A stretch of 64,000 nt of DNA from Eledone cirrhosa (lineage: Eukaryota): the NCBI GenBank assembly GCA_964016885.1, contig OZ024759.1, forward strand, positions 16,368,001 through 16,432,000, written 5' to 3'. Under the pieces are notes generated by a model. That model searched no databases. It was not told the DNA's origin and worked only from the letters and a program-made list of their open reading frames with translations. The position numbers and the translations under genes were made by a program. Shown one piece after another: positions 11,601 through 62,752 of this stretch (positions within the stretch are counted from its first letter, which is position 1; each line of letters starts with the position of its first letter).

Positions 11601-14600
11601 GCTTCAGCCCGAGAATAATAGAGAGAGGGTCTTCTGTAATTGTCTTTATTTATTTATTTATTTCTTCATATCACCACTACGTACCAACACACTTCTCCTC
11701 CTTCTCTCTCAATCTTTTCTATATTTCATCTTCCTATCCCCCACCTTGCAGCTTTGCTATTCTCCTTACCCACCACTAGCCACTTCTTGTTGTGTGACAG
11801 TAGTTAGAGAGGCCGGTTGAGACCAGTGAGCCAGACCAAGGCGTCATTTTCAGCATTATTTGTAGCCTCCAAGCGCCTCGGACGCCATGCTTTGACGCAT
11901 AGAGTTACGGCCCTTGCCATTCTGAGTTTAAATCCCGCCGAGGTTAACTTTGCCTTTCATCCTTACGGGGTCGATAAAATAAAGTACCAGTAATGCACTG
12001 AATAATTGCTGGCCTTGTGCCAAAAGTAGAAACAATTATTTGTAGCCTCCAAGCCGCCAGGAAAACGTCTGAGAGGGTAATCCCGAACAACATGCAGTAC
12101 TGTATGGTCAGGGTTCCCACATTCACATGTTGGGCTCTCCTTCATTTCCCACCGATGGAGATGATGGGCTATCCTAGCATTTGTTGTGTGGATCCAATTA
12201 AGGGACACCCGTTGTTTTCTGGGAAGGTCAAAGCTAGCTGGTTTAGATGTGGGGTCCTGGATGAGGTCTTGGTAGGTACTGAATTCTGTCCATTGAGGAA
12301 TTTTTACCTGATGCAATCATTGATAGCATTTGGTTGTTTTAGCAGTATTTCTTGCATTGAGTTTTCTAATTTTTGGTATTTATTTGATAGGCAGTGTGTT
12401 GTATAAGAAATACAGTAACAAAAAGGTTAAATCTTCTCTCTTACAGAACAAACCACTCCAGAAAAATGTAAGAAACCACGCACACCAACCAAATCGCGAA
12501 AGCGAACTATGAGTGGCCGAAGTATATCTGACCACAGTGATATTGAGCTAGATGGCGTTGACCGGACTGCATCTAGCAAGGACATGTCAGATGATAGCTG
12601 TGTGGAAATACTGGACAACATCAACGACATCTGTGTTATATCTGATGGTGGTGCCGGTGGCAGAAGAGTAAGTGGGAGCAATATTAAAGGCACTGTGTCC
12701 TTCCATAACCATGTGCTCAACCATAATGAAGATCTGGTACAAGGGCTTCAGTCTTTTGTCAAAGAAAAACTATATTCTCGTTATGTTTTAACAATGAGCG
12801 AGTTGAAACGCTTATTTCAGTTGAACTTAATCCAGAGTCAACCTGGTCACATTTTAAGTTCTGGTGTGTCAGATCAAATGTTAGAGCAGGCTGTACTTGA
12901 TGTTGGAGGAATTAAAATGAATGATTTGGTGAGTTTTTTTTTTTTTTTGTTTTTTTTTCCTTCATTTATTCTCAAGTCCCAAATAATAGAGTGGGAGGGC
13001 AGTTTGGAAAATCAGTAATTTTTCTAAGTTGTCTTCGTTGATTTTTTTTAAAAACCAGAATTAGTTATTTAGTTTACATATTGAGACCTCAACCCATCCT
13101 ATTTATTTAACCCTTTAGTATTTAAACTGGCTGTATCCGGCCAAAATTTTCTCACCTTTTTTGTATTCAAACCGGTTGTAACTGGCCACTCATACTGATG
13201 TTAAGGTTTTGTTCTCAAAATAAATAGCATCAAAATCTCATAGACTCAATATTATGAGATAATTATGTGAGATACTTTTTTTGTCCTGTATAATGCTTAA
13301 AGAAAATTAATTGTTGCAGCAATGCTACCACTTAAAATAAATTTTTGCTGGAGATAGATTAGTAAAATTTAAAATGCACGGGTGGGTAGGGTTGGAATAA
13401 GAGCGGAGGGGGTTGAAAAAAAATCGGAAACATCAGTAAGGTGGGGGAGGTGAGGGGTGATTATTCAAGACCCAAGAGTATGTTGTATATCAATACTGAT
13501 GATCAATATTGATGATTCTCTGATTGTTTTATTTCTCTTTCACTAGTGGGTTAAACCATTCATAGACGAACCTGTATTCCTGGTCTCCAAATTTGGTGAT
13601 GCTTTAGATCCAGTAAGTTGTTATTCCTTATATATGTTTGTTGTTGTGGGTACTGTAGGTTTTGTTGTTGGTACTGGTGTGCTTGTTGTAGATGTTGTTG
13701 TTATTGTTGCCAGTAATATTGTGCTTGTTGTTATTGCTCTTGTTGTTGTTGGTACTGTAGGTTTTGTTGTTGGTACTGGTGTGCTTGTTGTTGTTGTTGC
13801 TCTTGTAGATGTTGTTGTTGTTATTGTTGCTGGTACTGTTGTGCTTGTTGTTATTGCTCTTGTAGATGTTGTTGTTGTTATTGTTGCTGGTACTGTTGTG
13901 TTTGTTGTTGTTGTTGCTCTTGTAGATGTTGTTGTTGTTGCTCTTGTAGATGTTGTTGTTGTTGTTCTTGTAGATGTTGTTGTTATTGTTGCTGGTACTG
14001 TTGTGCTTGTTGTTGTTGTTGCTCTTGTAGATGTTGTTGTTGTTATTGTTGCTGGTACTGTTGTGCTTGTTGTTGTTGTTGTTGCTCTTGTAGATGTTGT
14101 TATTGTTGCTGGTACTGTTGTGCTTGTTGTTGGTACTGTTGTGCTTGTTGTTGTTGTTGTTATTGTTGCCAGTAATGTTGTGCTTGTTGTTATTGCTCTT
14201 GTTGTTGCTCTTGTAGATGTTGTTGTTATTGTTGTCAGTAATGTTGTGCTTGTTGTTGTTGTTGTTGTTGCTCTTGTAGATGTTGTTGTTGTATATGTTG
14301 TAGATGTGGCTGTAGTTGGCCAGCAGTTCAGGGGAGGGAAGAAGTTGACTAAATCAACCCAGTTCATGACTGGTATTTGACGTTACTGAAATCTTCTTCC
14401 TGTTTTGTTTCAGATGAGAGGTGTACTTATTGGTATGTTCCAGTCCTCCTGCCGCGTGGCATCAAACACATTCAAGAAGAAAGTTGAAGATAACCTTGGT
14501 TACACCATGTCTGAAAATGACTGTAAAAAACTATTACGAGTAAGTTGAAGCGCAGTAGTCTCCTTTTATCTTCATTGTTTTGTGTGGTGGTTGAGGTTCT

Positions 14601-16353
14601 CCCCCCACACTAACACATACTCTCAGGTCCCAATAATAGAGGGAGGGGGGTAATCTTTCTGGGTTGTTTCCATTGATTTTTTTTTAATAACCAGAATTAG
14701 TCATTTATTTTACATATTGAGACCCCAACCCATCTTATTTATTTAATAACATATGAGATTTCTAGTAATGTACTTTTTTTAATGCATAAAGAAAATTAAT
14801 TGTTGCAGGAATGCTATCACTTAAAATAAAATTTTGTTGGACATAAATCAGCAAAATTTAATAAGAGGGGGAATTGGAAAAGATCTGAAAAATTAATAAG
14901 TGTGGGGAAGGTGATAGGGTCGATTATTTGAGACCTGAGAGTATTTGAAATAACTTTTTAAAAGTCTTTTTAATTTCAATTTTTACTGGTGTCATTTATA
15001 TATATATATATATATATTTATTTGACACCTACACGACCACTTTGCAGCATGGGCTTTACTAGATGTATGCGTCAGCTCGGGACGTTGGGGTGGGGTGTGG
15101 TAGTGCATACTATATATATATGCTTCAGCTTTAGCCTGTGCCAAAGCGGGTCCTCTGTATTGCTGCACAACACTAGAGATCTCAGTGCTGTGTCATCATC
15201 TTTGAGAAATGCAATTGGGTAAGGTCAGCTTTTATCATCTCATCCCAAGTCTTCCACTCTAAGGCTTCCATCCACTTTGAGTGCTCTGCACCTTTGTATA
15301 CTGCTGTCATCCTTCATATGCATCACATGTCTTTTTACTAATGCAATCTCCTCTCCTGCACACTGCATCTGATTCCTCTTATACCTAGTTTCTCTCAGTT
15401 CATTTATGCTTTGCCTTTCACGTATACTACTATTACACATCCATCGGAGCATGTAAGCTTCATTTCTTACCAATCTACGCAAGTCTTCTGCACCAAACGC
15501 CCAGGTCTCACTACCATGCAACATTGCTGTACATATGCACGCATCATACAGTCTGCTTTTCATTTTGAGGGAAAAGCCTTTTGTAACTAGCAGTGGTAGT
15601 AGCTCCCTGAACTTCTTCCATCCTGTTCTCACTTTTGCTACTGTACTCTCAGAACACCCACCTCTGTTGCTAATTTGGTCACCTAAGTAGAAGCTGTCTA
15701 CTGCTTCTACTGAGCCTTCCTGGAATTTGATAGCACTTGTTTCCTGTGGCCGTTTGCTGCTTACTGCCCCAGTGCAACTTCTACATGTAAAGCCTACATT
15801 CTTAGCTAAATTTCCCCAAAGCCCACTACATCTCTTGTGTACTCATAGTTTGCATTTGGAGCAGAGGATGGAATTTCTACTTACACCTTTCCTACATACT
15901 TAGCATGGCCATTTCCCTGAGGTGATTTGGGTTTTGTTTTCTTTTCTACTTACTAGGATCTTAGTCTTTGTCAGGTTGGCCCCTTGTTTGTACACCCTTC
16001 TTCCATATATATATATATATGTATCAATACATATATAATATGTATGAGGATTATGTTTCCGAAATATTATGTGCTTTATATATATGTACAAAATACTATG
16101 TGTTTCTTAAATGCCATATGGTTCTCTTTCTTTCTCTCTGTCCCTCTATATATATATCTTTTAATTTGAATTATATATATATATATTATTGCCACATCCA
16201 GCTCCTTGATATCTTTATCATCATAGCCTATATGTAAAATAAGCTAAGTTACAAACAAGCGATTATTTCTGACTCATTTCTTTGTTTCAGGATTATTGTG
16301 TCACGAAAGGATCTTGTTGGTATATGAAAGGGATAAACATTGATGAATCATGA
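860..16353 (+). CDS. POLR3E: DNA-directed RNA polymerase III subunit RPC5 (Sin-like), 5'-partial gene; 11 coding exons in window
   Basis: Exons 860-984, 1890-1981, 3904-4024, 5335-5416, 7540-7599, 9709-9812, 10932-11038, 12447-12928, 13547-13612, 14414-14539 and 16291-16353 join in frame with AG/GT boundaries. Peptides PSNILSLSQLRTMPLQEQVKALL, LQQVAVLVQGSWVVKSEILYP, LCRGRDYLMWKF, GWEFLFDYDKEF and the C-terminus DYCVTKGSCWYMKG match what I recall of RPC5. Confidence 0.93.
1143..1762 (+). mobile_element. Non-autonomous RTE-like element (5' UTR-like region and 3' end), interrupted by a microsatellite
   Basis: Reverse-complement homolog at about 45207-45655; ends ggccatactcgataacgaggtgggcagccatcat, also seen at 60330-60365. 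Confidence 0.5.
1890..1981 (+). CDS. POLR3E: POLR3E exon (EKPALPSNILSLSQLRTMPLQEQVKALLIN)
   Basis: aacag| acceptor, |gtaaga donor, phase 2 to 1. Confidence 0.92.
3547..3774. mobile_element. piggyBac-like MITE family A (~230 bp)
   Basis: TTAA-CCCTTTAGCATTTA...TAAATGCTAAAGGG-TTAA; further copies at 2061-2427, 4326-4634, 8254-8481, 9354-9521, 17526-17921, 33188-33390, 35324-35786, 38158-38373, 41273-41479, 49892-50095 and 57650-57879. Confidence 0.8.
3904..4024 (+). CDS. POLR3E: POLR3E exon (AKVIRFRQLL...VLVQGSWVVK)
   Basis: cttcag| acceptor, |gtatgt donor, phase 1 to 2. Confidence 0.93.
5335..5416 (+). CDS. POLR3E: POLR3E exon (SEILYPKDATSPHSGVSAEHLCRGRDYL)
   Basis: tttcag| acceptor, |gtcagt donor, phase 2 to 0. 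Confidence 0.92.
5702..6393. repeat. 49-bp minisatellite, ~14 copies, inside a composite SINE
   Basis: Unit ctttacagtgtgggctgggtgcttttttgccgtggcacctccacgacca. Confidence 0.95.
6604..7145 (+). mobile_element. Non-autonomous Helitron-like element
   Basis: A|TC start; ends CCC..GCCGGGTTCCTCAGCTAG|T; the 5' boundary is uncertain. Confidence 0.45.
7540..7599 (+). CDS. POLR3E: POLR3E exon (MWKFLHTRYVTRKEISSVIK)
   Basis: tttcag| acceptor, |gtaagt donor, 60 nt, phase 0. Confidence 0.9.
7916..8235 (-). mobile_element. RTE-clade LINE 3' fragment
   Basis: RERRLRWYGHVMRM...GRRGRGRPRKTW, followed by a (TGA)n tail; further fragments at 10680-10900, 18310-18555 and 58147-58355. Confidence 0.85.
8870..9165. 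repeat. 23-bp minisatellite, ~12 copies
   Basis: Unit cccactggtgcctttaccacatt. Confidence 0.93.
9231..9613. mobile_element. piggyBac-like MITE family B with a nested family A copy
   Basis: TTAACCCTTT terminus; homologs at 27870-28092, 42597-43049 and 55505-55742; nested insert 9354-9521 duplicates TTAA. Confidence 0.7.
9709..9812 (+). CDS. POLR3E: POLR3E exon (LPAEDVKDILEQMSRVRVSHGWEFLFDYDKEFCS)
   Basis: gtttag| acceptor, |gtgata donor, phase 0 to 2. Confidence 0.9.
10932..11038 (+). CDS. POLR3E: POLR3E exon (RYPEIVQRQKVLWEAKFQSLCKQL...)
   Basis: ttacag| acceptor, |gtattt donor, phase 2 to 1. Confidence 0.9.
11105..11510 (+). mobile_element. Two tRNA-derived CORE-like SINE copies
   Basis: A/B boxes plus CORE-like segment, starting near 11105 and 11363. 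Confidence 0.75.
12040..12340 (-). mobile_element. LINE 3' fragment with a C-terminal zinc-knuckle region (Ingi/Vingi-like)
   Basis: FDLPRKQRVSLNWIHT...HLHRWEMKESPTCECGNPDHTVLHVVRDYPLRRFPGG. Confidence 0.6.
12447..12928 (+). CDS. POLR3E: POLR3E exon (linker plus start of C-terminal winged-helix region)
   Basis: ttacag| acceptor, |gtgagt donor; contains ORF 12509-13018 up to ...GIKMNDL; phase 1 to 0. Confidence 0.88.
13547..13612 (+). CDS. POLR3E: POLR3E exon (WVKPFIDEPVFLVSKFGDALDP)
   Basis: cactag| acceptor, |gtaagt donor, 66 nt. Confidence 0.85.
13636..14310. repeat. (GTT)n-based compound microsatellite/minisatellite filling a POLR3E intron
   Basis: GTT runs interspersed with recurrent GGTACT, GTAGAT and GCTCTT words. 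Confidence 0.92.
14414..14539 (+). CDS. POLR3E: POLR3E exon (MRGVLIGMFQSSCRV...DCKKLLR)
   Basis: tttcag| acceptor, |gtaagt donor, 126 nt. Confidence 0.87.
14618..14943. mobile_element. TA-flanked MITE (Tc1/mariner/pogo-type)
   Basis: TIR TACTCTCAGGTC..AATAAT / ATTATTTGAGACCTGAGAGTA; copies at 12968-13480 (with nested family A MITE) and 32198-32557. Confidence 0.7.
15240..15975 (-). mobile_element. Decayed RTE-clade LINE RT fragment
   Basis: GWKKFRELLPLL...RLYDACI.TAMLHGSETW...MLRWMC, with an upstream Cys-rich KWPC..CRKGV segment; frameshifted. Confidence 0.8.
16291..16353 (+). CDS. POLR3E: POLR3E terminal coding exon (DYCVTKGSCWYMKGINIDES*)
   Basis: tttcag| acceptor, TGA at 16351-16353; resembles the RPC5 C-terminal CV..GG.WYLKG motif. 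Confidence 0.88.
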   Translation, partial: DYCVTKGSCWYMKGINIDES

Positions 16354-17489: not shown

Positions 17490-18871
17490 GTTTATTACAA
17501 TTTGCAAATGAAATTATTTTTTATTTTAACCCTTTAGCATTTACATTACTCTATATACACTTGTATTTTTGTGGTAAAGGCTTTACCTCACATAATATCG
17601 AATCTACAAGCTATTGGTGTTATTTATTTTGAGAATAACATCTTAATATAAGTATGAGTGGCCAGTTACAGCTGATTTGAACAGAAAAAGGAGAGAATTT
17701 TGGCCGGATATGACTGGTTTAACCCTTTAGCATTCACATTACTCTATATTACTATTGTATTTTCACAGTAAAGGCTTTACCTCACATAACTATATCACAT
17801 AATATCGAATATATGATATTTTGAGAAAAATACCCTAACATCAGTATGTGTGGCCAGTTACAGCCGGTTTGATCAGAAATAGGTGAGAAAATTCTGGCCG
17901 GTTTAAACGCTAAAGGGTTAAAGGTGAACTGGTGCTTTTCATCATGACACCAGCACTGCCACCTTACAGGGTGACTGGGTGCTTTTGTTGTGGCATCAGT
18001 ACTACCACTTTACAGCATGGAGCAGGTACTTTCGTTGTGGCACCAACACTACCACCTTGCAGAGTTTACTGGGTGTATTTTATCATGACACCAGCACTAC
18101 CACCTTACAGCATGGACTGGGTACTTTTGTTGTGGCATCAGCACTATATAATGATTAATGGAAACATCATGAACCAAGCAATTAAAGGTTATCACATATT
18201 TTCGTTGACTTGTTCTCTCTGACTCTGAGGTGGATGTTGCCTGATTGTCACAGCTGGCAAAATTACAAAGCTAGAAATTTTAATACAGTTGTTGACTATG
18301 ATAAATTATCATCATTTTACGTCTGCTTTTCCTTGCTTGCAAAGGTGAGACAGATCTTCTTCAGCACAGCATCTCTCCATTCGTCACGGTCCTTCGTCAT
18401 CTCTTCTGTTAGCTTCAGCGATCTGAGGTCAGCTCTCACCACCTTCACCCATGTTTTTCATGGTCTTCCTCTACTGCATCTTCCTTCTACCGGGATTTCT
18501 TGGCACTTCTTCACCCAGCGGTCATCTTCCATGTGCATCACATGGCCATACCAAGTTTCTTCCTTGGAATATTCATTTCTAATTAAAGATACTGCTTGTG
18601 ATTGTCAAATTATCTTGAAAATGAAGAATTTGAAGAAATTTAGTAGCATAGCTAACTTTTTCTTTATTTAGCTGGTATATATATATATATATATATACAC
18701 ACACATATATCATCAGTGTCACTTTAACGGCTGCTTTCCCTGCTAGCAAATATATTATATATACATATAAATACATATATAAACACGCACATTATATATA
18801 TATAGATACATACATATACACACATGTATAAATAATATGGATGAGGTGTCAAATTTTCATTATATTTATTT

Positions 18872-18959
18872 AAGTGCGACGCACGTTTCGCGATTGATCA
18901 GCTCAAGGTTGCTCAGTGTTGATCGGACTCGACTCTGGAATCAAAAGCTCATCAGACTT
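18872..18959 (-). ncRNA. Hammerhead ribozyme motif with GUC site and imperfect stem I
   Basis: Minus strand reads AAGT-CTGATGA-GCTTTTGATT...GATCAATCGC-GAAA-CGTGCG-TC-GCACTT. Confidence 0.6.
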
Positions 18960-18985
18960 CTGTTATGGTAATGACGGAACTATAT

Positions 18986-19700
18986 ATCATCATCATCATC
19001 ATCATCAACGTTTAACGTCCGTGTTCCACGCTTGCATGGGTTTGGACGGGGGTAGTCCCACTTGAGGCAAGAGTGATTGTCTTGCTCGCATAGGACTGTC
19101 TGGCAGGTTTTCTACAGTTGGATGCCCTTCCTAACACCAACCACATTTACAGTGTGGGTCTGGGAGGTTTTTACCGTGTTGCCTACACGGCCACATTACA
19201 GCGTGGACTGTGTGTTTTTTTTTTTTATATATATATAACACAATGTCACTGGACCGAGACCTTTGGCGGTACTCAGTAATAGAGAAGACCCGCCTTACCT
19301 AAATACATAGTAAAACCTACTACAGCCAGTAGGCATCTCTAACAAAATACACCCCTGTCCCACCACCCACACCCCATCCACACCACCCCCTCCTATGTAA
19401 AGTTATGTTGGTGCCACAACATCCAGGCCGAAACAAATGAGATCGTGTAGGTGTCACGACAAAAAAACACACAGTCCACGCTGTAATGTGGCCGTGTAGG
19501 CAACACGGTAAAAACCTCCCAGCTCCACACTGTAAACGTGGTTGGTGTTAGGAAGGGCATCCAGCTGTAGAAAACCTGCCAGACAGTCCTATGCGAGCAA
19601 GACAATCACTCTTGCCTCAAGTGGGAATACCCCCGTCCAAACCCATGCAAGCGTGGAACACGGACGTTAAACGTTGATGATGATGATGATGATGATGATA
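18986..19700. repeat. ~235-bp inverted pair of RTE-tail repeats
   Basis: 18986-19222 is the near-exact reverse complement of 19461-19700. Confidence 0.9.
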
Positions 19701-19947
19701 TATATATATATATCCAGGAAGTGTAACGTGAAGTTACTGCAGGTTCACCCATGTGAGCACCCGATTTTTAGGTTCACTTCAGTGGCGAGGTGTAGTGTGA
19801 GTTCAAATCCCGCTGAGGTTAACTGCCTTTTATCCTTATGGGGTCGATAAAACAAAGTACCAGTAATGCACTGAGATAATTGCTGGCCTTGTGCCAAAAA
19901 TAGAAACAATTATTATTATTATTATTGTATATATATATAGAGAGAAG

Positions 19948-20165
19948 TGAAGGTGTGCGGCTGAGTGGTTAGAGAATTGGATTCGCAATCGTAAGGTTGT
20001 GAGTTCGATTCCTGGACCAGGCGATGCGTTATGTCCTTGAGCAAGACACTTTATTTCACGTTGCTCCTTCTACCTGGAGTTGCGACCGATAGATAGTATT
20101 AGCAATTGGAAAGACCAACGGAAACATTGTTCCCTCGGTCCGATTTGACGAAAGTCGATCGTTCC
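19948..20165 (+). mobile_element. tRNA-derived SINE, same subfamily as 233-450
   Basis: Collinear with 233-450, including the ...ccgatttgacgaaagtcga tail. Confidence 0.75.
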
Positions 20166-20226
20166 TTTATATATATATAGAGAGAGAGAGATACATACAC
20201 GCACGTATATATATATATATACACAC

Positions 20227-20390
20227 ATATCAACTAGAAATTGATTGACATATATATATATTTAAAATAAACACATGAAACAATCACAGGGGATAATTTG
20301 TAAAGTGTGTAATCACACATAGCTAGGTAGGTAACTAATTAAAGTTAAACTTTACAAATTATCCCCTGTGATTGTTTCATGTGTTTATTT

Positions 20391-20426
<36 letters not shown>

Positions 20427-20446
20427 AATTAATTTCTAGTTGATAT
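20227..20446. repeat. ~80-bp inverted repeat with internal (TA)n of unequal length
   Basis: Arms 20227-20306 and 20349-20446; 42-nt spacer. Confidence 0.88.
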
Positions 20447-20919
20447 AAAATGCTCCGATATCTATTCATTCTAATATTTGAGCTTATTCTACGGTGGATA
20501 TGGTGCATGTGTCGCACATGACTCCCTTAATTTAATTTAATTAATTTTGGATATATACACACATATATAGATATAGATGTAGATAGATGAAACGGCAGAG
20601 AGAAAGTATCATGTGTCCTAAAAAAAAAAAAAGCAGACGATGTTAATGATTTTGGCGGCGTCCGTGCGATCGTCTTTTGATAACAAGTATTGAACAAGAA
20701 AAGTAGCAGGAAATTACACCACTGGTAAATCTTTTTATTTCGATTTTGTTTTATTTTCAAATTTGTTCCTTTTCAATTATATTTTTATTTTTCGTATAGG
20801 TACCGTAAAATATGAAAAAAATAATTAAATTATATAGTTATTCTATGTATATATGTCTGTCTGTCTGTATGTGTGTATGTATGTACATGTGTTTGTGTAT
20901 ACATGTGAGTATGTGTGTG

Positions 20920-20954
<35 letters not shown>

Positions 20955-21270
20955 AGTCATACTACCTGACAAACGTATATTGCCAAATTATACCCCTCAT
21001 ATGACGGGTAACAGAAGTGAGTGTGTGTGTATATATATATATACATACACACACACAAATTGATTAACGCAGTTAAAAACTCAAATTAATCATCCCTTAT
21101 AATTTAGGGAGCTCAAGGGCTCTTTGTAACTCAACATATAGAGAGAAATACACATTCGTATGAAACAGTTCTAGACCTGTAGAATCCATTTCTATATTAA
21201 ATTTCGTTGTTTTCACTCTACTAATGTATTGAGTACCTTATTTACTGCGGTTACCCCCCGATATCACTCT

Positions 21271-21325
<55 letters not shown>

Positions 21326-21498
21326 GTAGGAGGTGAGTAATATTGTAGAACAATAAAACAATGCATATATCAGTTAAGTAGCACTCGACAGTTGGTAGAA
21401 CTGGAGTATATATAAAGAAGGAATTAAAAGATTGTTAAATATGTTGACTGAACACTTTCTTATTCACAAGTGTTTTTAGACTTCATATCATGTTACCT

Positions 21499-21568
21499 TA
21501 TTTTATCTGATGAGAACACAATTTTTGTCCCAGGATGATGTTGTTTTCGAAATGCGCATAATAAAATA
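21499..21568 (+). ncRNA. Type I hammerhead ribozyme motif with intact core
   Basis: Stem I TATTTTAT/ATAAAATA; CTGATGA at 21507-21513; stem II GAACACAA/TTGTTTTC; GAAA at 21549-21552; palindromic stem III ATGCGCAT; AUA cleavage triplet ending 21560. Confidence 0.75.
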
Positions 21569-21601
21569 TATGGAACATTTTTAACCATCTTTTAATTCCT
21601 T

Positions 21602-21647
<46 letters not shown>

Positions 21648-21834
21648 GTGTGTGTGTGTGGCTAAAGTCATTTGATTTATTTCTATATATCACTCCCTGT
21701 TTTCATCGTGTCTTGCTTCACCCATAAATAAGAAACAATATATATATATATATACAAAATAGACAGTTCGTGATCGTTTATTAAGAGGAGTGTTCAGATT
21801 GTTATCATAAATAGTAACATTCTTTTATGCGACT

Positions 21835-21897
21835 CCCGCCCATTGTGTACGTCAATTAATGATTTACCTGTAGAGTTGTGACGTAAATATCGGAAGT
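21835..21897. promoter_or_regulatory. Candidate promoter/enhancer motif cluster
   Basis: GC box CCCGCCC (21835), two inverted CRE-like sites TACGTCA (21848) and TGACGTA (21879), and ETS CGGAAGT (21891), all within 63 bp of non-repetitive DNA. Confidence 0.4.
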
Positions 21898-22264
21898 TGT
21901 TTTTTAAAAAAAAAACAAAAAAAACATCCTCCTTATACTATTTTTTATTTATTTTATTTTGTTAACAACACTCTATTCATAACATTTAATTACATATACA
22001 CACACATAGAGTGCATTTGTGTGTGTGTATATATATATATATATATAAATACACACTCATGTGTGTGTATTTACACAAACCCTCCATCTCAATTTTACTT
22101 TTGATAATCATAAGAACTGTGAAACTGGTAAAGTAAATAAATATTCTTAAAAAAGACATTAGTTGCATTTTCAAATTGTTTTCCTTATATATATATATAT
22201 AGTCTGCCAATACTGGAATTGAACCATCAAGACCGTTGAGGTATGCCATACATCAATTCATGTA

Positions 22265-22326
22265 TTTTATCTGACGAGGATGTACTGAAAATACAGCCCA
22301 GTACCTTCCAAATATATATAATAAAA
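22265..22326 (+). ncRNA. Hammerhead ribozyme motif with GAAA to CAAA core change (probably inactive)
   Basis: TTTTAT-CTGACGA-GGATGTACTG..CAGTACCTTC-CAAA-TATATA-TA-ATAAAA; same architecture as the 21499 motif. Confidence 0.65.
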
Positions 22327-22477
22327 CATATTTTGATTATGTGAATGTCTTCATTTATTAATATTCTGAATAATATTAATAACTCCAGAAAACTTCTTTG
22401 TAGAGTGCTTTTAATCTATTGTAAAACTATATTCATTGAGTAATCGATGAACCATATTAATCTTTGGTTATATATAT

Positions 22478-22650
22478 GATGGACCATAACGGCTAATTCT
22501 GGACGTTTACAGTCCAGAATTAGCCGTCGAAACGGCTTGAGCTCAGCCGTCGGGGTGCTACTTGTTCCTATTACCCACTCTACTACCCTAAGTATTGAGT
22601 ACTTTGGTGCATTATGGTCCATCTGGTTCCTTACCACATTTCCTTCGTTA
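22478..22650 (+). mobile_element. Penelope-like fragment: hammerhead 3' half plus conserved tail, embedded in (TA)n
   Basis: Hairpin ACGGCTAATTCTGGAC/GTCCAGAATTAGCCGT, then GAAA-CGGCT..AGCCG-TC-GGGGT; near-identical to 25460-25600. Confidence 0.55.
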
Positions 22651-23211
22651 TATATATATACATGCATAACTACACATGAGTGTTTCTGCTTCAGTTAGTG
22701 TGCTGTTTGTGTGTAAAAACAGGGTGTATAAATGATACCTGTTGAAATTGAGGCCATTTGGAAAGACATGTGAGATTCGTACGTCATTCTAATAAATTGT
22801 CAAGTTTGTTTGTCGTGTGTAAACTGAAACTTTCATTTGTACCACCAGAAATAGCCACAGTATACAAACCACCCGTCAAGCCTTAAATATATTTATATTT
22901 AGTTGAGCTGCTATTATAGCTAAGTCGGTGACTGGACGCAAGTGTCTGCACAAGAACACACACACATATATATATACTACATACTTTTATATATTATATT
23001 AATATATATATATTTATATGTACATATAATTTTTATAGAGAGACCAGAAAGAAAGAGAATTGAGATAGATTAAAAAAAGTTTTGTGAACTGTCTTTTGGG
23101 AAATAATTTTGCTATATTTTAAAGAAGAAAGAAACAATTTGCTGTTATTTAAAAAAAAAAATAAGTGGACAATAAATAAGGAAAGGGTAAAAACGAAGTA
23201 CTACGTTTGAT

Positions 23212-24111
23212 ATGGAAGGAAAACAAGGAGAAAGTTACACGAAAGAAAACGATGGACAATTAGAGGAAAAGCGAAAAATGAAAGAAGCATTTACAAGTGG
23301 TGGTTATTTGACCAATTCACTTGAATTAATTCCAGAGCAGTCATCGGAAATATATAATTTAGAAACAGACTCGTCGCAAAAAGACAGAGATAGAGAAGTT
23401 GTTCTGAAAGTATCGTTGGAGTCGGAAAATCTTCCTAAAAATAAAGACCAAGTAGTTGAAAGAATGAACTCCAACGAGACCGAACGGATCCCTGGACGGA
23501 AAGCCAGAAACACATCAATGAATAAAAGTGTGAAAGGTAACTACCATGTGGCTATACAGAGGGACAGACTGGATTCTTACCGCTTCTATAAAAACCGTTA
23601 TGATAACAATAAATCTAATGCTGAAGAAGTAAGAAGACACTCGGACTCGATATCCGATAATAATTATCCAGCTAAAATACCCATCACTCGTACCAACACC
23701 AACACCACCAACAACTCTGACCAAAGTACTCGTCATTCAACTTTGGCTGAAATGAACTCGGGGTCTTTTGATGACGATGTATTTGTGGCTAATCCGTCAT
23801 TTTCGCGACTGGAATCAAACACTTCAACCACATCTACGACCACAATTCGTGATAATCCTTACAATAACCTAAATTACAGAATACACGATGCTTTGTGGTG
23901 TCCGTGCATACTTCCTTTCTTCTATCTCTGTTGCAGTCCTTCAATATATTTCATGACAAATTCCGATAGTTTCTTCAGACAGAACGATGACAAGAAAGCT
24001 AAATTATATGCAAGGACAGCTACAGGTTTGTACTTGGTTGGAACAATTTTTGCTTTGTTATTTTATACGGGCATTTTTGTGCTTCTGCTCACCTATGTTC
24101 TTCCAAAATAG
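23212..24111 (+). CDS. Intronless 299-aa membrane protein: long hydrophilic N-terminus plus C-terminal CD225/dispanin-like (IFITM/PRRT/SynDIG-type) module
   Basis: Non-repetitive 900-nt ORF in AT-rich DNA. The C-terminus DALWCPCILPFFYLCCSPSIYF-(NSDSFFRQNDDKKAKLYARTA)-TGLYLVGTIFALLFYTGIFVLLLTYVL has a Cys-rich hydrophobic segment, a short charged loop and a terminal TM helix. AATAAA at 24691-24696. Confidence 0.8.
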   Translation: MEGKQGESYTKENDGQLEEKRKMKEAFTSGGYLTNSLELIPEQSSEIYNLETDSSQKDRDREVVLKVSLESENLPKNKDQVVERMNSNETERIPGRKARNTSMNKSVKGNYHVAIQRDRLDSYRFYKNRYDNNKSNAEEVRRHSDSISDNNYPAKIPITRTNTNTTNNSDQSTRHSTLAEMNSGSFDDDVFVANPSFSRLESNTSTTSTTTIRDNPYNNLNYRIHDALWCPCILPFFYLCCSPSIYFMTNSDSFFRQNDDKKAKLYARTATGLYLVGTIFALLFYTGIFVLLLTYVLPK

Positions 24112-25178
24112 GGTCCCTGACAAAACTTTCAAGCCAAAATCCCCACCGAACAAAATCATCTGGGACAAAATTCGCACCTCTACCGGACAAAAAAAAAAAC
24201 AAAAAAACTCACAAAATTTATTCCTTTTTTAAAACAAAGAAACACACATATATGTAGATTTCCGAGTTGTGTCAGGGGTAACCACAATTAAAAAAGGTAT
24301 ACTCAATACCTTTTGAAAGTAAAGGCATCTTTATTATATATAGAAAAAACTTCCACAGGACTAAAACTCTTTCATTCATATGAAATCATATATAAAGACA
24401 AAAAGGGCGAGGGAGAGATTGTATCATTAAACATCGAAGTTTACTTTCTAAATCAATTTTTTAATGTAAAAAAAAAAAAAATTATGTACGACTAGCATAA
24501 TTTGTGAATACGAATATAAAAATACTCAATACAAGCATGGAAGGGTTCTTTCGTTTTAAGCCAACGGCAGTCTCTGACCAATAATTTTCATTTATATTCA
24601 TTAAATTTACATATACAATATCCCAGAAAATACGTGGAGAAGAGATAGAGTTATGTCCATGTATGTTGCGATGTTTCTTTTTATTTTACTAATAAATCAT
24701 TCGGAATTTACTTATACAGATCTATCAGGTATTTACATTTTATTATGTACTGACGACTGCTGTCTACTTAAAACGAAATAACTCCAACATTGGTATACAC
24801 ATATATATGAAATAATGAAATGACTGTGTACAGTGCACAGGTGCACTACAAATATATATATATATATTATGCCCCTTGCCATTCTGCGTTCAAATCCCGC
24901 CGAGGTTAACTTTGCCTTTCATCCTTACGAGGTCGATAAAATAAAGTACCAGTAATGTACTGGTATAATTGCTGGCCTTGTGCCAAAAGTAGAAACAATT
25001 ATAATATAACCATATTCTACTACCGCCTTCGCCATTCTGTCCGCCGGGGCTGTGGGGAAGCCAGCACGTGGGACCCCATTTCCTCACCACACGGAGAAAT
25101 GGAGGTGATGACAGTGGGAGTACAGGCTGTTCTTTCTCGACAATTAATAAATAATGTTTATACAGCTACTACCACAGA

Positions 25179-25385
25179 GGCCCGACGCGCGATTGATTCG
25201 AGTCGGGCTAGATCGAACCTTGAGCTGATCAATAGCGAAACGTGCCTCGCCAACCAATAAAGGTAATGAAGGAGTAACTATTCGTCCTTGTTTTATTATA
25301 TTACACTGTCTAGCTCTACTACCCCAAGTATCGAGTACTTTGTTGAGTAATGGTCTAACCAGTTTCAAACTGAATCCATCCCGAT
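25179..25385 (+). mobile_element. Penelope-like terminal-repeat fragment with a degenerate hammerhead
   Basis: GGC-CCGACGC-GC..GC-GAAA-CGTGCCTC-GCC; shares AACCTTGAGCTGATCAAT.GCGAAACGTGC with the 18872 motif; tail ctctact..aagtatcgagtacttt is shared with the 22570 and 25530 copies. Confidence 0.5.
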
Positions 25386-25391
25386 ATATAT

Positions 25392-25600
25392 ATAGGAACG
25401 AGTAGGACCCCGACGGCTGAGCTCAAGCCGTTTCGACGGCTAATTCTGGACGAAATTTCGTCCAGAATTAGCCGTCGAAACGGCTTGAGCTCAGCCGTCG
25501 GGGGGTCCTACTAGTTCCTATTACCCACTCTACTATCCTAAGTATTGAGTACTTTGGTGCGTTATGGTCCACTTGGTTCCTTACCACATTTCCTTCGTTA
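25392..25600 (+). mobile_element. Same Penelope-like fragment with a 5' inversion forming a ~130-bp palindrome
   Basis: Arms 25392-25455 and 25456-25521 with no spacer; tail matches 22560-22650. Confidence 0.6.

Positions 25601-29718: not shown

Positions 29719-62752
<33,034 letters not shown>

Follow-up and report, generated by a model that had tools for sequence, protein, structure and literature searches.

What are the hammerhead-derived modules that crowd 6.8 kb between two genes of the octopod Eledone cirrhosa, and how did they come to lie there? The window (64,000 nt of contig OZ024759.1, all of which was analysed) had been described from its letters alone, in what we call the sequence-only reading, as holding a hotspot of non-autonomous Penelope-like or retrozyme-like elements depleted from the flanking genes. 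We put at roughly three in four the probability of a different answer: the modules are Hydra-clade 3' ends in (TA)n, with two alternative ends before hairpins that likely position the RT.

The modules themselves hold up. All seven positions reported earlier are hammerhead-derived, from several families, each being matched by family profiles trained without window copies (the reversed control gives 0), and the profile search adds an eighth, older module at 24341-24391 on the minus strand (Table 1). Their folds had been called complete or partial; by a full type I descriptor, which matches once across the window (21499-21568; shuffles give 0.17 +/- 0.37), the hammerhead is complete in 1 of the 8 island modules, the others being partial, mutated or weak in stem I. 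In the family D module (22265-22326) G12 has become C at 22309, so that GAAA now reads CAAA; in the family A2 module (25179-25251) both core and stem III are mutated; and the two family B modules (22490-22555 and 25392-25521) lack CUGANGA, their long 'stem II' being a fold-back between two inverted arms. The family C insertion carries hairpin 1, described below, on the minus strand at 21407-21381 within its inverted tailed arm, and the tail of the A2 copy changes to a B-like tail at the common CTCTAC. Family A gave 2698 first-look candidates across the genome. An Rfam scan of the window returned no match at the gathering threshold, and no hammerhead family even at E up to 10; the matches up to E 10 are TA/CA fold-backs. 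The (TA)n setting and common tail of the modules are borne out, as is the paucity of motifs in the rest of the window, where only 60183 and one doubtful match, at 51072 and probably low-complexity noise, were found; a search within the window for RT or GIY-YIG remnants likewise found none. The ORF between the modules is uninterrupted, and its C-terminal region is CD225/dispanin-like, which we take as a lead only; a Pfam search with the 299-aa product gave no match. Four contig runs that match part of the island yielded nothing on expression, splicing or cleavage.

Table 1. Features of the window, numbered from its first nucleotide
Feature	Position	Strand	Remarks
Last coding exon of POLR3E/RPC5	16282..16350	+	Context
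Family A 3' end, tail-less arm	18837..18984	-	CTGATGA core 18955-18949; stem I weak
Family E 3' end	21148..21272	+	Hammerhead 3' half, then hairpin 1 (21215-21236), tail, (TA)n
Family C double-armed insertion	21325..21604	+	Inverted tailed arm and direct tail-less arm
Sole complete canonical type I hammerhead of the island	21499..21568	+	Stem I 8 bp; palindromic stem III; dimer type
Family D 3' end	22203..22470	+	Hammerhead, hairpin 1 (22382-22408), tail
Family B 3' end	22478..22650	+	Short deleted inverted arm, hammerhead 3' half, hairpin 1 (22577-22602), tail
Host ORF, 299 aa	23212..24111	+	Bystander; Atlas 0.86-0.87
Old family E-like copy (eighth module)	24250..24391	-	Unseen in the sequence-only reading
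Family A2 3' end	25165..25383	+	Core mutated (CCGACGC)
Family B double-armed insertion	25394..25599	+	Inverted tail-less arm and direct tailed arm; hairpin 1 25527-25552; without CUGANGA half
Last coding exon of ABCC1/MRP1-like gene	29722..29859	-	Context
Minimal hammerhead, another family	60181..60230	+	Antisense within ABCC intron

The modules represent five Penelope-like element (PLE) families, as 5'-truncated 3' ends within (TA)n. A search for partner elements, as had been proposed, led to ORFs for four of the five: longer copies of A2, B, C and D run upstream into a GIY-YIG or RT/GIY-YIG ORF. One long copy is full-length and open (family B, locus L192, ORF of 740 aa); a GIY-YIG ORF lies upstream in L086, L089 and L191 for family C and in L307 and L292 for A2, and RT and GIY-YIG pieces lie upstream in L189 for family D. 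The search for a family E partner found no long copy, and an ORF near a family E copy in L224 was rejected as a separate insertion; family E has the hairpin, two ends and arm pairing in common with the other families, and we infer an ORF link for it. Because long copies of four families carry these ORFs, the modules are not non-autonomous, a partner having been shown for all but E. A non-LTR retrozyme identity was rejected: no tandem array was found at the modules, and coding parents were.

The ORFs bear out a Penelope-like origin and point to one clade. Pfam gave no match for the family B protein; among 42 aligned relatives, one matches RVT_1 and one GIY-YIG. RT and, at the C terminus, GIY-YIG share a single ORF in L192, with pieces of this arrangement in C, D and A2. 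The family B protein carries RLRWR and SDKTGN, corresponding to the RWK motif and the DKG to DKT change (of 120 homologs, 103 have DKT and 1 has ADKG). The CxCx5C linker occurs in 109 of the 120 and in C, D and A2; it is intact in 5 of 11 family B copies read and altered in the rest, L192 included. CNLC and CKH are present, corresponding to the CxxC and CxH that the Hydra clade has around E and N, and CCHH is absent, as in that clade. A first assignment of the ORFs to Neptune PLEs was rejected, CCHH and the CX2-5CxxC linker being absent. By sequence, then, the elements appear to be Hydra-clade PLEs, with a likeness to Hydra-1_Obim judged by eye. Their pLTR hammerheads only partly follow the complete CUGANGA/GAAA core: it is canonical in families C (25/26) and D (24/24), whereas A2 and part of A have a U4C variant and family B reads CUGAGAA in 18/21. 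The proposed targeting of (TA)n agrees with the position of modules and copy ends in such tracts, 152 of 164 modules having a tract of at least (TA)4 no more than 200 nt away (random, 66%).

Is the island a hotspot? Random tiles (26 contigs with lower-bound lengths, excluding C16, C25 and small contigs; 0.02% of the genome) extrapolate to ~2.4x10^5 insertions of these families genome-wide and ~4x10^5 complete hammerhead matches, the latter counting each arm of an insertion separately and including ~4% chance matches. The density of complete motifs is 1.5 per 10 kb in island and genome alike, and 9 of 80 random tiles equal the island when the library comes from outside it, so the hotspot was overstated. 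Modules do stand above background, the island falling within the top 3-11% of a background that is itself clumped (33 gaps of less than 500 nt between neighbours vs 20 expected), with 8 modules per 24 (TA)n tracts against 0.057 per tract. The cluster is only modestly unusual, as such elements are very common in the octopod genome.

The further suggestion, that sense-strand cleavage is selected against, is not supported. The local scarcity is real: the POLR3E and ABCC gene bodies hold 2 modules in 81 kb, neither sense, against 8 in the 6.8 kb of the island. Both genes are TA-poor, and the scarcity fits this (3.4 modules expected from TA content, p=0.34). Across ten gene bodies complete motifs are 14 sense vs 18 antisense (p=0.60), and in eight of these, from myosin genes, there are 41 modules over 324 kb, their complete motifs dividing into 12 sense and 16 antisense; the myosin sample covers motor-domain spans (8 of ~18 genes, 34/60 tiles) and has little power to reveal a weak bias. 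The reading of a genuine hotspot, made up of non-autonomous ribozyme elements that harmful sense-strand cleavage has cleared from genes, could draw on the local contrast and on reported enrichment of Xenopus retrozymes between genes (10.64898/2026.07.22.740005); it is contradicted already in the sampled gene bodies and by the partner ORFs, and we consider it very improbable.

For Hydra-clade 3' ends, the new and informative part of the result is the tail hairpin. The sequence-only reading rightly saw related tails after the modules and did not read them as a conserved fold; the tail holds a covarying hairpin, RCTC-stem-TH-GAGYRC, present in 68 of 78 distant metagenome Hydra-type loci (antisense, 8 matches; reversed, 2). 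It often occurs twice per locus, 55-83 nt apart: where upstream sequence is sufficient, 32 of 52 loci have two hairpins, 13 one and 7 none. Full elements run hammerhead, hairpin 1, hairpin 2, ATG; in octopod, hairpin 2 was seen in family B only (L192 and 2 read-through copies). The first inner pair is paired in 98% vs 75% of shuffled sequences and 0 of 5000 shuffles equal it, a test inflated by relatedness among the sequences. The outer pair is G-C in 119 matches vs A-T in 5 among metagenome Hydra-type loci, and A-T in 76 vs G-C in 7 in octopod tiles; mismatches exist (A..C, 28 matches among metagenome loci). No earlier description of the twin hairpin was found in the searched literature, the main text of Craig et al. 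2021 (PMC8557442) giving 0 matches for hairpin or stem-loop; it is visible by eye in the File S7 consensi of that paper.

Copies end at short TA microhomology, 0-12 nt 5' of a hairpin. Each of the five families tested (A2, B, C, D, E) has two sharp ends, those of family B falling 8 nt before hairpin 1 and 6 nt before hairpin 2; of 13 informative ends at distant Hydra-type loci, 10 precede a hairpin by 0-4 nt and 3 lie elsewhere. Double-armed insertions are nearly always mixed, pairing one tailed with one tail-less arm: among classifiable insertions outside the query selection this holds for 48 of 49 (24.5 expected, p about 1e-13), and at query-selected loci for 57 of 61. The motif might instead act as DNA or as a pLTR promoter or translation element (an endonuclease site, for example), TA microhomology alone setting the ends. 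Both ends do have TA/TAT in common with the target, hairpin 2 lies shortly 5' of the ATG, and the D. virilis tail was required for endonuclease recognition (cited in PMC11167929). We nonetheless find this unlikely: the inner pairs differ in letters yet covary, TA is common in these UTRs but the ends are sharp and their hairpin distance constant across families and hosts, and microhomology alone would not yield one arm of each type.

The DNA suggests how hairpins could position the RT. The GIY-YIG domain would nick the palindromic (TA)n target on both strands, a dimer of the protein would bind the two hairpins, and each nick would prime cDNA at one of them; both cDNAs would end early and then join head to head. 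A Poseidon PLE offers a published precedent: its RT starts at two internal sites, both strands are cleaved and a dimer is predicted (PMC11167929). Every insertion leaves (TA)n on either side, later insertions likely piling up alongside, and clusters such as the island would therefore likely arise; truncated copies have no hairpin 2 and are for that reason predicted to be dead ends. Folding back or template switching of a single cDNA, with the second end trimmed in repair, could also give one tail, and inverted junctions are often palindromic, having been read earlier as self-priming (PMC3846280) or endonuclease resolution of an intermediate (PMC8557442); but the tail can be on either arm (window family C vs B; L192) and both ends lie at equal offset from homologous hairpins, which makes a single cDNA rather improbable. 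We are evenly divided on the broadest form of the two-hairpin proposal: that a clade-wide hairpin pair, bound by a dimeric RT related to telomerase and priming once per (TA)n strand, explains the long-known one-sided tail and inverted arms, and thereby makes the octopod genome among the most hammerhead-dense on record (~4x10^5 motifs, 3 Gb), with no intron strand purging.

PLEs are the sister group of telomerase, and the hairpin bears on both their RNA recognition and the one-ended tail of their inverted insertions. Short, covarying, twice repeated and at fixed distance from both ends, it is a direct experimental handle; if it sets the cDNA start, it would also be a transferable signal directing RNA-templated insertion at (TA)n. 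In this octopod, a clade so far described from few families seems to make up a major class of repeats, and toleration on both intron strands suggests that its intact-looking hammerheads, which number in the hundreds of thousands, stay mostly silent unless dimerised or aided by protein.

Among known systems, Neptune PLEs share a C-terminal GIY-YIG, a cysteine linker and microsatellite bias, and are set apart by CX2-5CxxC and CCHH, neither of which occurs here. Non-LTR retrozymes (PMC7229834; 10.64898/2026.07.22.740005) likewise have type I hammerheads, high copy number and a relation to PLEs, but are tandem non-coding repeats, whereas the island holds truncated ends of coding elements, either single or inverted. 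Poseidon PAc of Anolis (Frangieh et al. 2024, PMC11167929) resembles these elements in two tail-bounding start sites 3' of the hammerhead, an AT-rich target and cleavage of both strands; it belongs to another clade, its start sites lie within the ORF at an AC-rich stem-loop and are the same on both strands, its tail is 30-40 nt (here ~55-100 nt), and its available text describes no paired conserved hairpins. Closest are the C-terminal EN+ PLEs of the Hydra clade (Craig et al. 2021, PMC8557442; including Hydra-1_Obim of Octopus bimaculoides), which have in common with our elements the order RT to GIY-YIG, RW[K/R], DKT, the CxCx5C linker, CxxC and CxH without CCHH, the (TA)n target, a pLTR hammerhead, an inverted 5' arm and a one-ended tail. 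Where the described Hydra clade comprises few families with units under 3 kb, the octopod unit is ~3.6 kb with a 1.0-1.5 kb 3' UTR, its expansion is an estimated 10^5-fold, and family B, unlike those described, is young and abundant despite its non-canonical CUGAGAA core.

The tail, the stretch that follows the hammerhead in the Penelope-like element (PLE) families of the island at 18840..25600 (A, A2, B, C, D and E), has two preferred ends. In each of five families tested the 3' ends fall into two peaks, one lying 0-12 nt upstream of an ACTC...GAGTRC hairpin and the other 55-100 nt later, with (TA)n joined at both; the choice of queries inflates the counts of tailed copies and leaves the two peaks unaffected. 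In family B, whose two hairpins lie 78 nt apart, copies stop 8 nt short of hairpin 1 or 6 nt short of hairpin 2, at a TAT also found in the target (45 and 70 copies). The hairpin motif occurs 78 times in random tiles versus 13 in reversed sequence, with inner pairs CA/TG, TG/TA, TA/TA and TG/CA. Among 78 metagenome loci whose encoded proteins are 35-41% identical, 68 carry the form GCTC-stem-loop-TH-GAGCAC (antisense 8 matches, reversed 2), and inner pairs 1-3 are paired in 98, 69 and 62%, versus 75, 44 and 41% when shuffled and 22-29% when slid. Where at least 200 nt precede the ORF (52 loci), two hairpins are present in 32, a single one in 13 and none in 7; hammerhead, hairpin 1, hairpin 2 and ATG follow one another in that order, and paired hairpins are spaced 55-83 nt. 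Second copies in the metagenome loci number 26, of which 9 stop at the contig end and 4 at the query end; among the remaining 13, 10 stop 0-4 nt upstream of one of the two hairpins. Judged by eye, published coral and sea cucumber consensi (Hydra-2_Amil, Hydra-1_Ajap and Hydra-2_Ajap) share this hairpin, which is altered in Hydra-1_Crog and not clear in Hydra-1_Amil or Hydra-1_Obim. No report of the twin hairpin was found in the full-text literature searched, which takes in few subscription journals or Repbase entries.

Double-armed insertions, in which two inverted (head-to-head) copies of the element 3' end share one (TA)n site, were met incidentally: 48 combine a tailed with a tail-less arm, versus 24.5 mixed insertions expected with independent arms, a single one has both arms tail-less, and 2 are unclassifiable. 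A tail at one end only has been described in words (PMC8557442; PMC3846280); the new part is its link to two homologous hairpins. Anatomy, end positions, covariation and arm pairing are all demonstrated in the sequence. For a Poseidon PLE, cDNA is reported to begin at two internal sites bounding the tail, both strands of AT-rich DNA are cut, a dimer is predicted, and the hammerhead is dispensable for insertion in vitro (PMC11167929). We infer that each hairpin would be bound by one protomer, setting the cDNA start a few bases upstream; at palindromic (TA)n, two nicks would each receive one priming event, and early termination and joining would give head-to-head arms. Because a new copy never acquires hairpin 2 at its 3' end, copying would require as template either a tandem read-through or a circle joined at the hammerhead site; the circle has been proposed earlier (PMC4209133). 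The island pieces would be dead ends. The tail, noted only in passing before, offers a testable model for a long-standing PLE feature.

The seven modules of the sequence-only reading are all matched by family profiles built from other genomic copies, as is an eighth, with 0 matches in reversed sequence, but only one hammerhead in the window passes a strict type I descriptor as complete. The two family B modules are without the CUGANGA half, and their apparent long 'stem II' is instead the junction between inverted arms. First-look candidates genome-wide range from at least 2,421 to at least 5,259 per module. The core is CTGATGA in 25 of 26 family C copies and in family E, CTGACGA in 24/24 of family D (GAAA intact in 20/23), CTGATGA (9) or CCGATGA (6) among 22 of family A, and CCGACGA in most A2 copies. 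Family B (21 copies) has CTGAGAA in 18, TTGAGAA in 2 and CTGAGAG in 1; its copies, including L192:7625-7736, form a young, abundant family. CUGAGAA can be read as a C3-A8 mismatch or as loss of position 7, and may be a dead ribozyme carried by a successful element or a candidate core variant; natural variants include U3-A8 covariation and U4C (PMC4209133; PMC3088659). Abundance despite this core fits a dispensable or protein-assisted ribozyme. In the random tiles another family, with TTGAAAA as its U3-A8 core, has 6 complete, near-identical copies (L218, L225, L234, L272).

The island had been called a hotspot. With a relaxed descriptor, 113 matches were counted over 80 random 10-kb tiles, versus 5 in reversed sequence; the 60 genome-wide tiles hold 1.52 complete motifs per 10 kb (bootstrap 1.00-2.15), or ~4.5x10^5 in the 3.0-Gb genome (3.9x10^5 leaving out one tandem array), and 48 modules of the five island families, or ~2.4x10^5 insertions (1.5-3.3x10^5). 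The axolotl has 126,247 motifs (PMC7229834). The island's 1 complete motif in 6.8 kb equals the genome-wide rate. When partial modules are counted too, with a library from random tiles only, it has 4, and 9/80 tiles are equally dense; with its own families added it has 8, and 2/80 central 6.8-kb windows have at least 7. Modules clump, 33 gaps falling below 500 nt where 500 null runs averaged 20 and peaked at 30, and their number rises with (TA)n density (rho 0.57). Given these densities, the clumping and the link to (TA)n, the island is dense yet inside the tail of a clumped background, although per (TA)n tract it is richer than average (8 per 24 versus 0.057). An intergenic bias of hammerhead repeats was reported previously (10.64898/2026.07.22.740005).

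Sense-strand purging from genes, also proposed, is not supported, though there may be a weak bias: in 324 kb sampled inside eight myosin genes located by profile, plus POLR3E and ABCC, complete motifs number 14 in sense and 18 in antisense orientation (p=0.60) and single-armed modules 15 and 14, with 14 modules on both strands. Load follows TA content, many in TA-rich and few in TA-poor genes, and POLR3E and ABCC hold 2 modules versus 3.4 expected. As framed, the earlier finding is ordinary and partly wrong.

The island lies between the 3' ends of POLR3E (RPC5 exon identity 71% with Octopus sinensis, 54% with a cuttlefish and 49% with Argonauta) and the ABCC1-like gene (exon 94-95% identical to octopod proteins), around an uninterrupted ORF. 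These identities make an octopod the most likely host. If the CpG-rich stretch acts as promoter of the ORF, its 5' UTR or an intron would contain modules D and B in sense orientation.

Features of the window (coordinates are window positions)
Feature	Position	Strand	Description
POLR3E	coding from 12 kb left of window to 16350	+	exon matches
Tandem repeat	13621-14380		Thr-rich, in POLR3E intron; 248 codons open in both directions, probably a repeat artefact
Inverted pair	18986-19696		two 236-nt arms, 98% complementary, spaced 239 nt; head-to-head copies of a very common short repeat, (CAT)n end
Inverted arms	20235-20420		72-nt arms separated by 42 nt and flanked by (TA)n tracts; perhaps the end of a further double-armed element without recognisable hammerhead
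Complete hammerhead	21499-21568
CpG-rich stretch	21780-21900		unique; TGACGT and CGGAAGT motifs; possible promoter
ORF	23212		299 aa; CD225-like lead only
Eighth module	24341-24391
Family switch	25300-25320		A2 changes to B-like tail at common CTCTAC within hairpin 1; apparent recombination or deletion joint
ABCC1-like gene	coding 29722 to 82627 or 88197	-	exon matches

The modules had also been taken as non-autonomous, a view contradicted by partner ORFs linked to families B, C, D and A2. Longer family B copies continue into a 1.2-kb UTR and then an RT/GIY-YIG ORF (94-97% identity), and L192 is a complete element that starts with an inverted tailed arm and a partial pLTR containing a hammerhead fold, continues with an open ORF of 740 aa and the UTR, and closes with a second fold and a tail-less end next to (TA)n. 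RT/GIY-YIG-type ORFs lie ~1.0-1.5 kb upstream in C (L086, L089, L191), D (L189) and A2 (L307, L292); none was found among the family E copies examined. Separately, the 3' UTRs of several Hydra families (L086, L089, L148, L307) carry an inserted fragment of a common SINE-like repeat. At L091:2303-5151, a frameshifted Penelope/Poseidon-type RT/GIY-YIG ORF with CCHH shows a second PLE clade in the same genome. The array at L240:5100-8940 (C6:77894801-77904800) consists of 13 identical units of 311 nt that all contain a complete hammerhead; it forms two inverted blocks with (TA)n at the ends, lacks the hairpin motif and resembles retrozymes. The full-text literature searched, with few subscription journals or Repbase entries, also yielded no report of a large cephalopod expansion of Hydra elements. 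The octopod ORFs have RW[K/R], DKT, CxCx5C, CxxC and CxH, lack CCHH and target (TA)n, the same motif set and target as the Hydra clade of Craig et al. (PMC8557442), whose supplement lists Hydra-1_Obim of Octopus bimaculoides; its protein and that of family B are alike by eye, and judged by these motifs the elements are further members of that already known clade.
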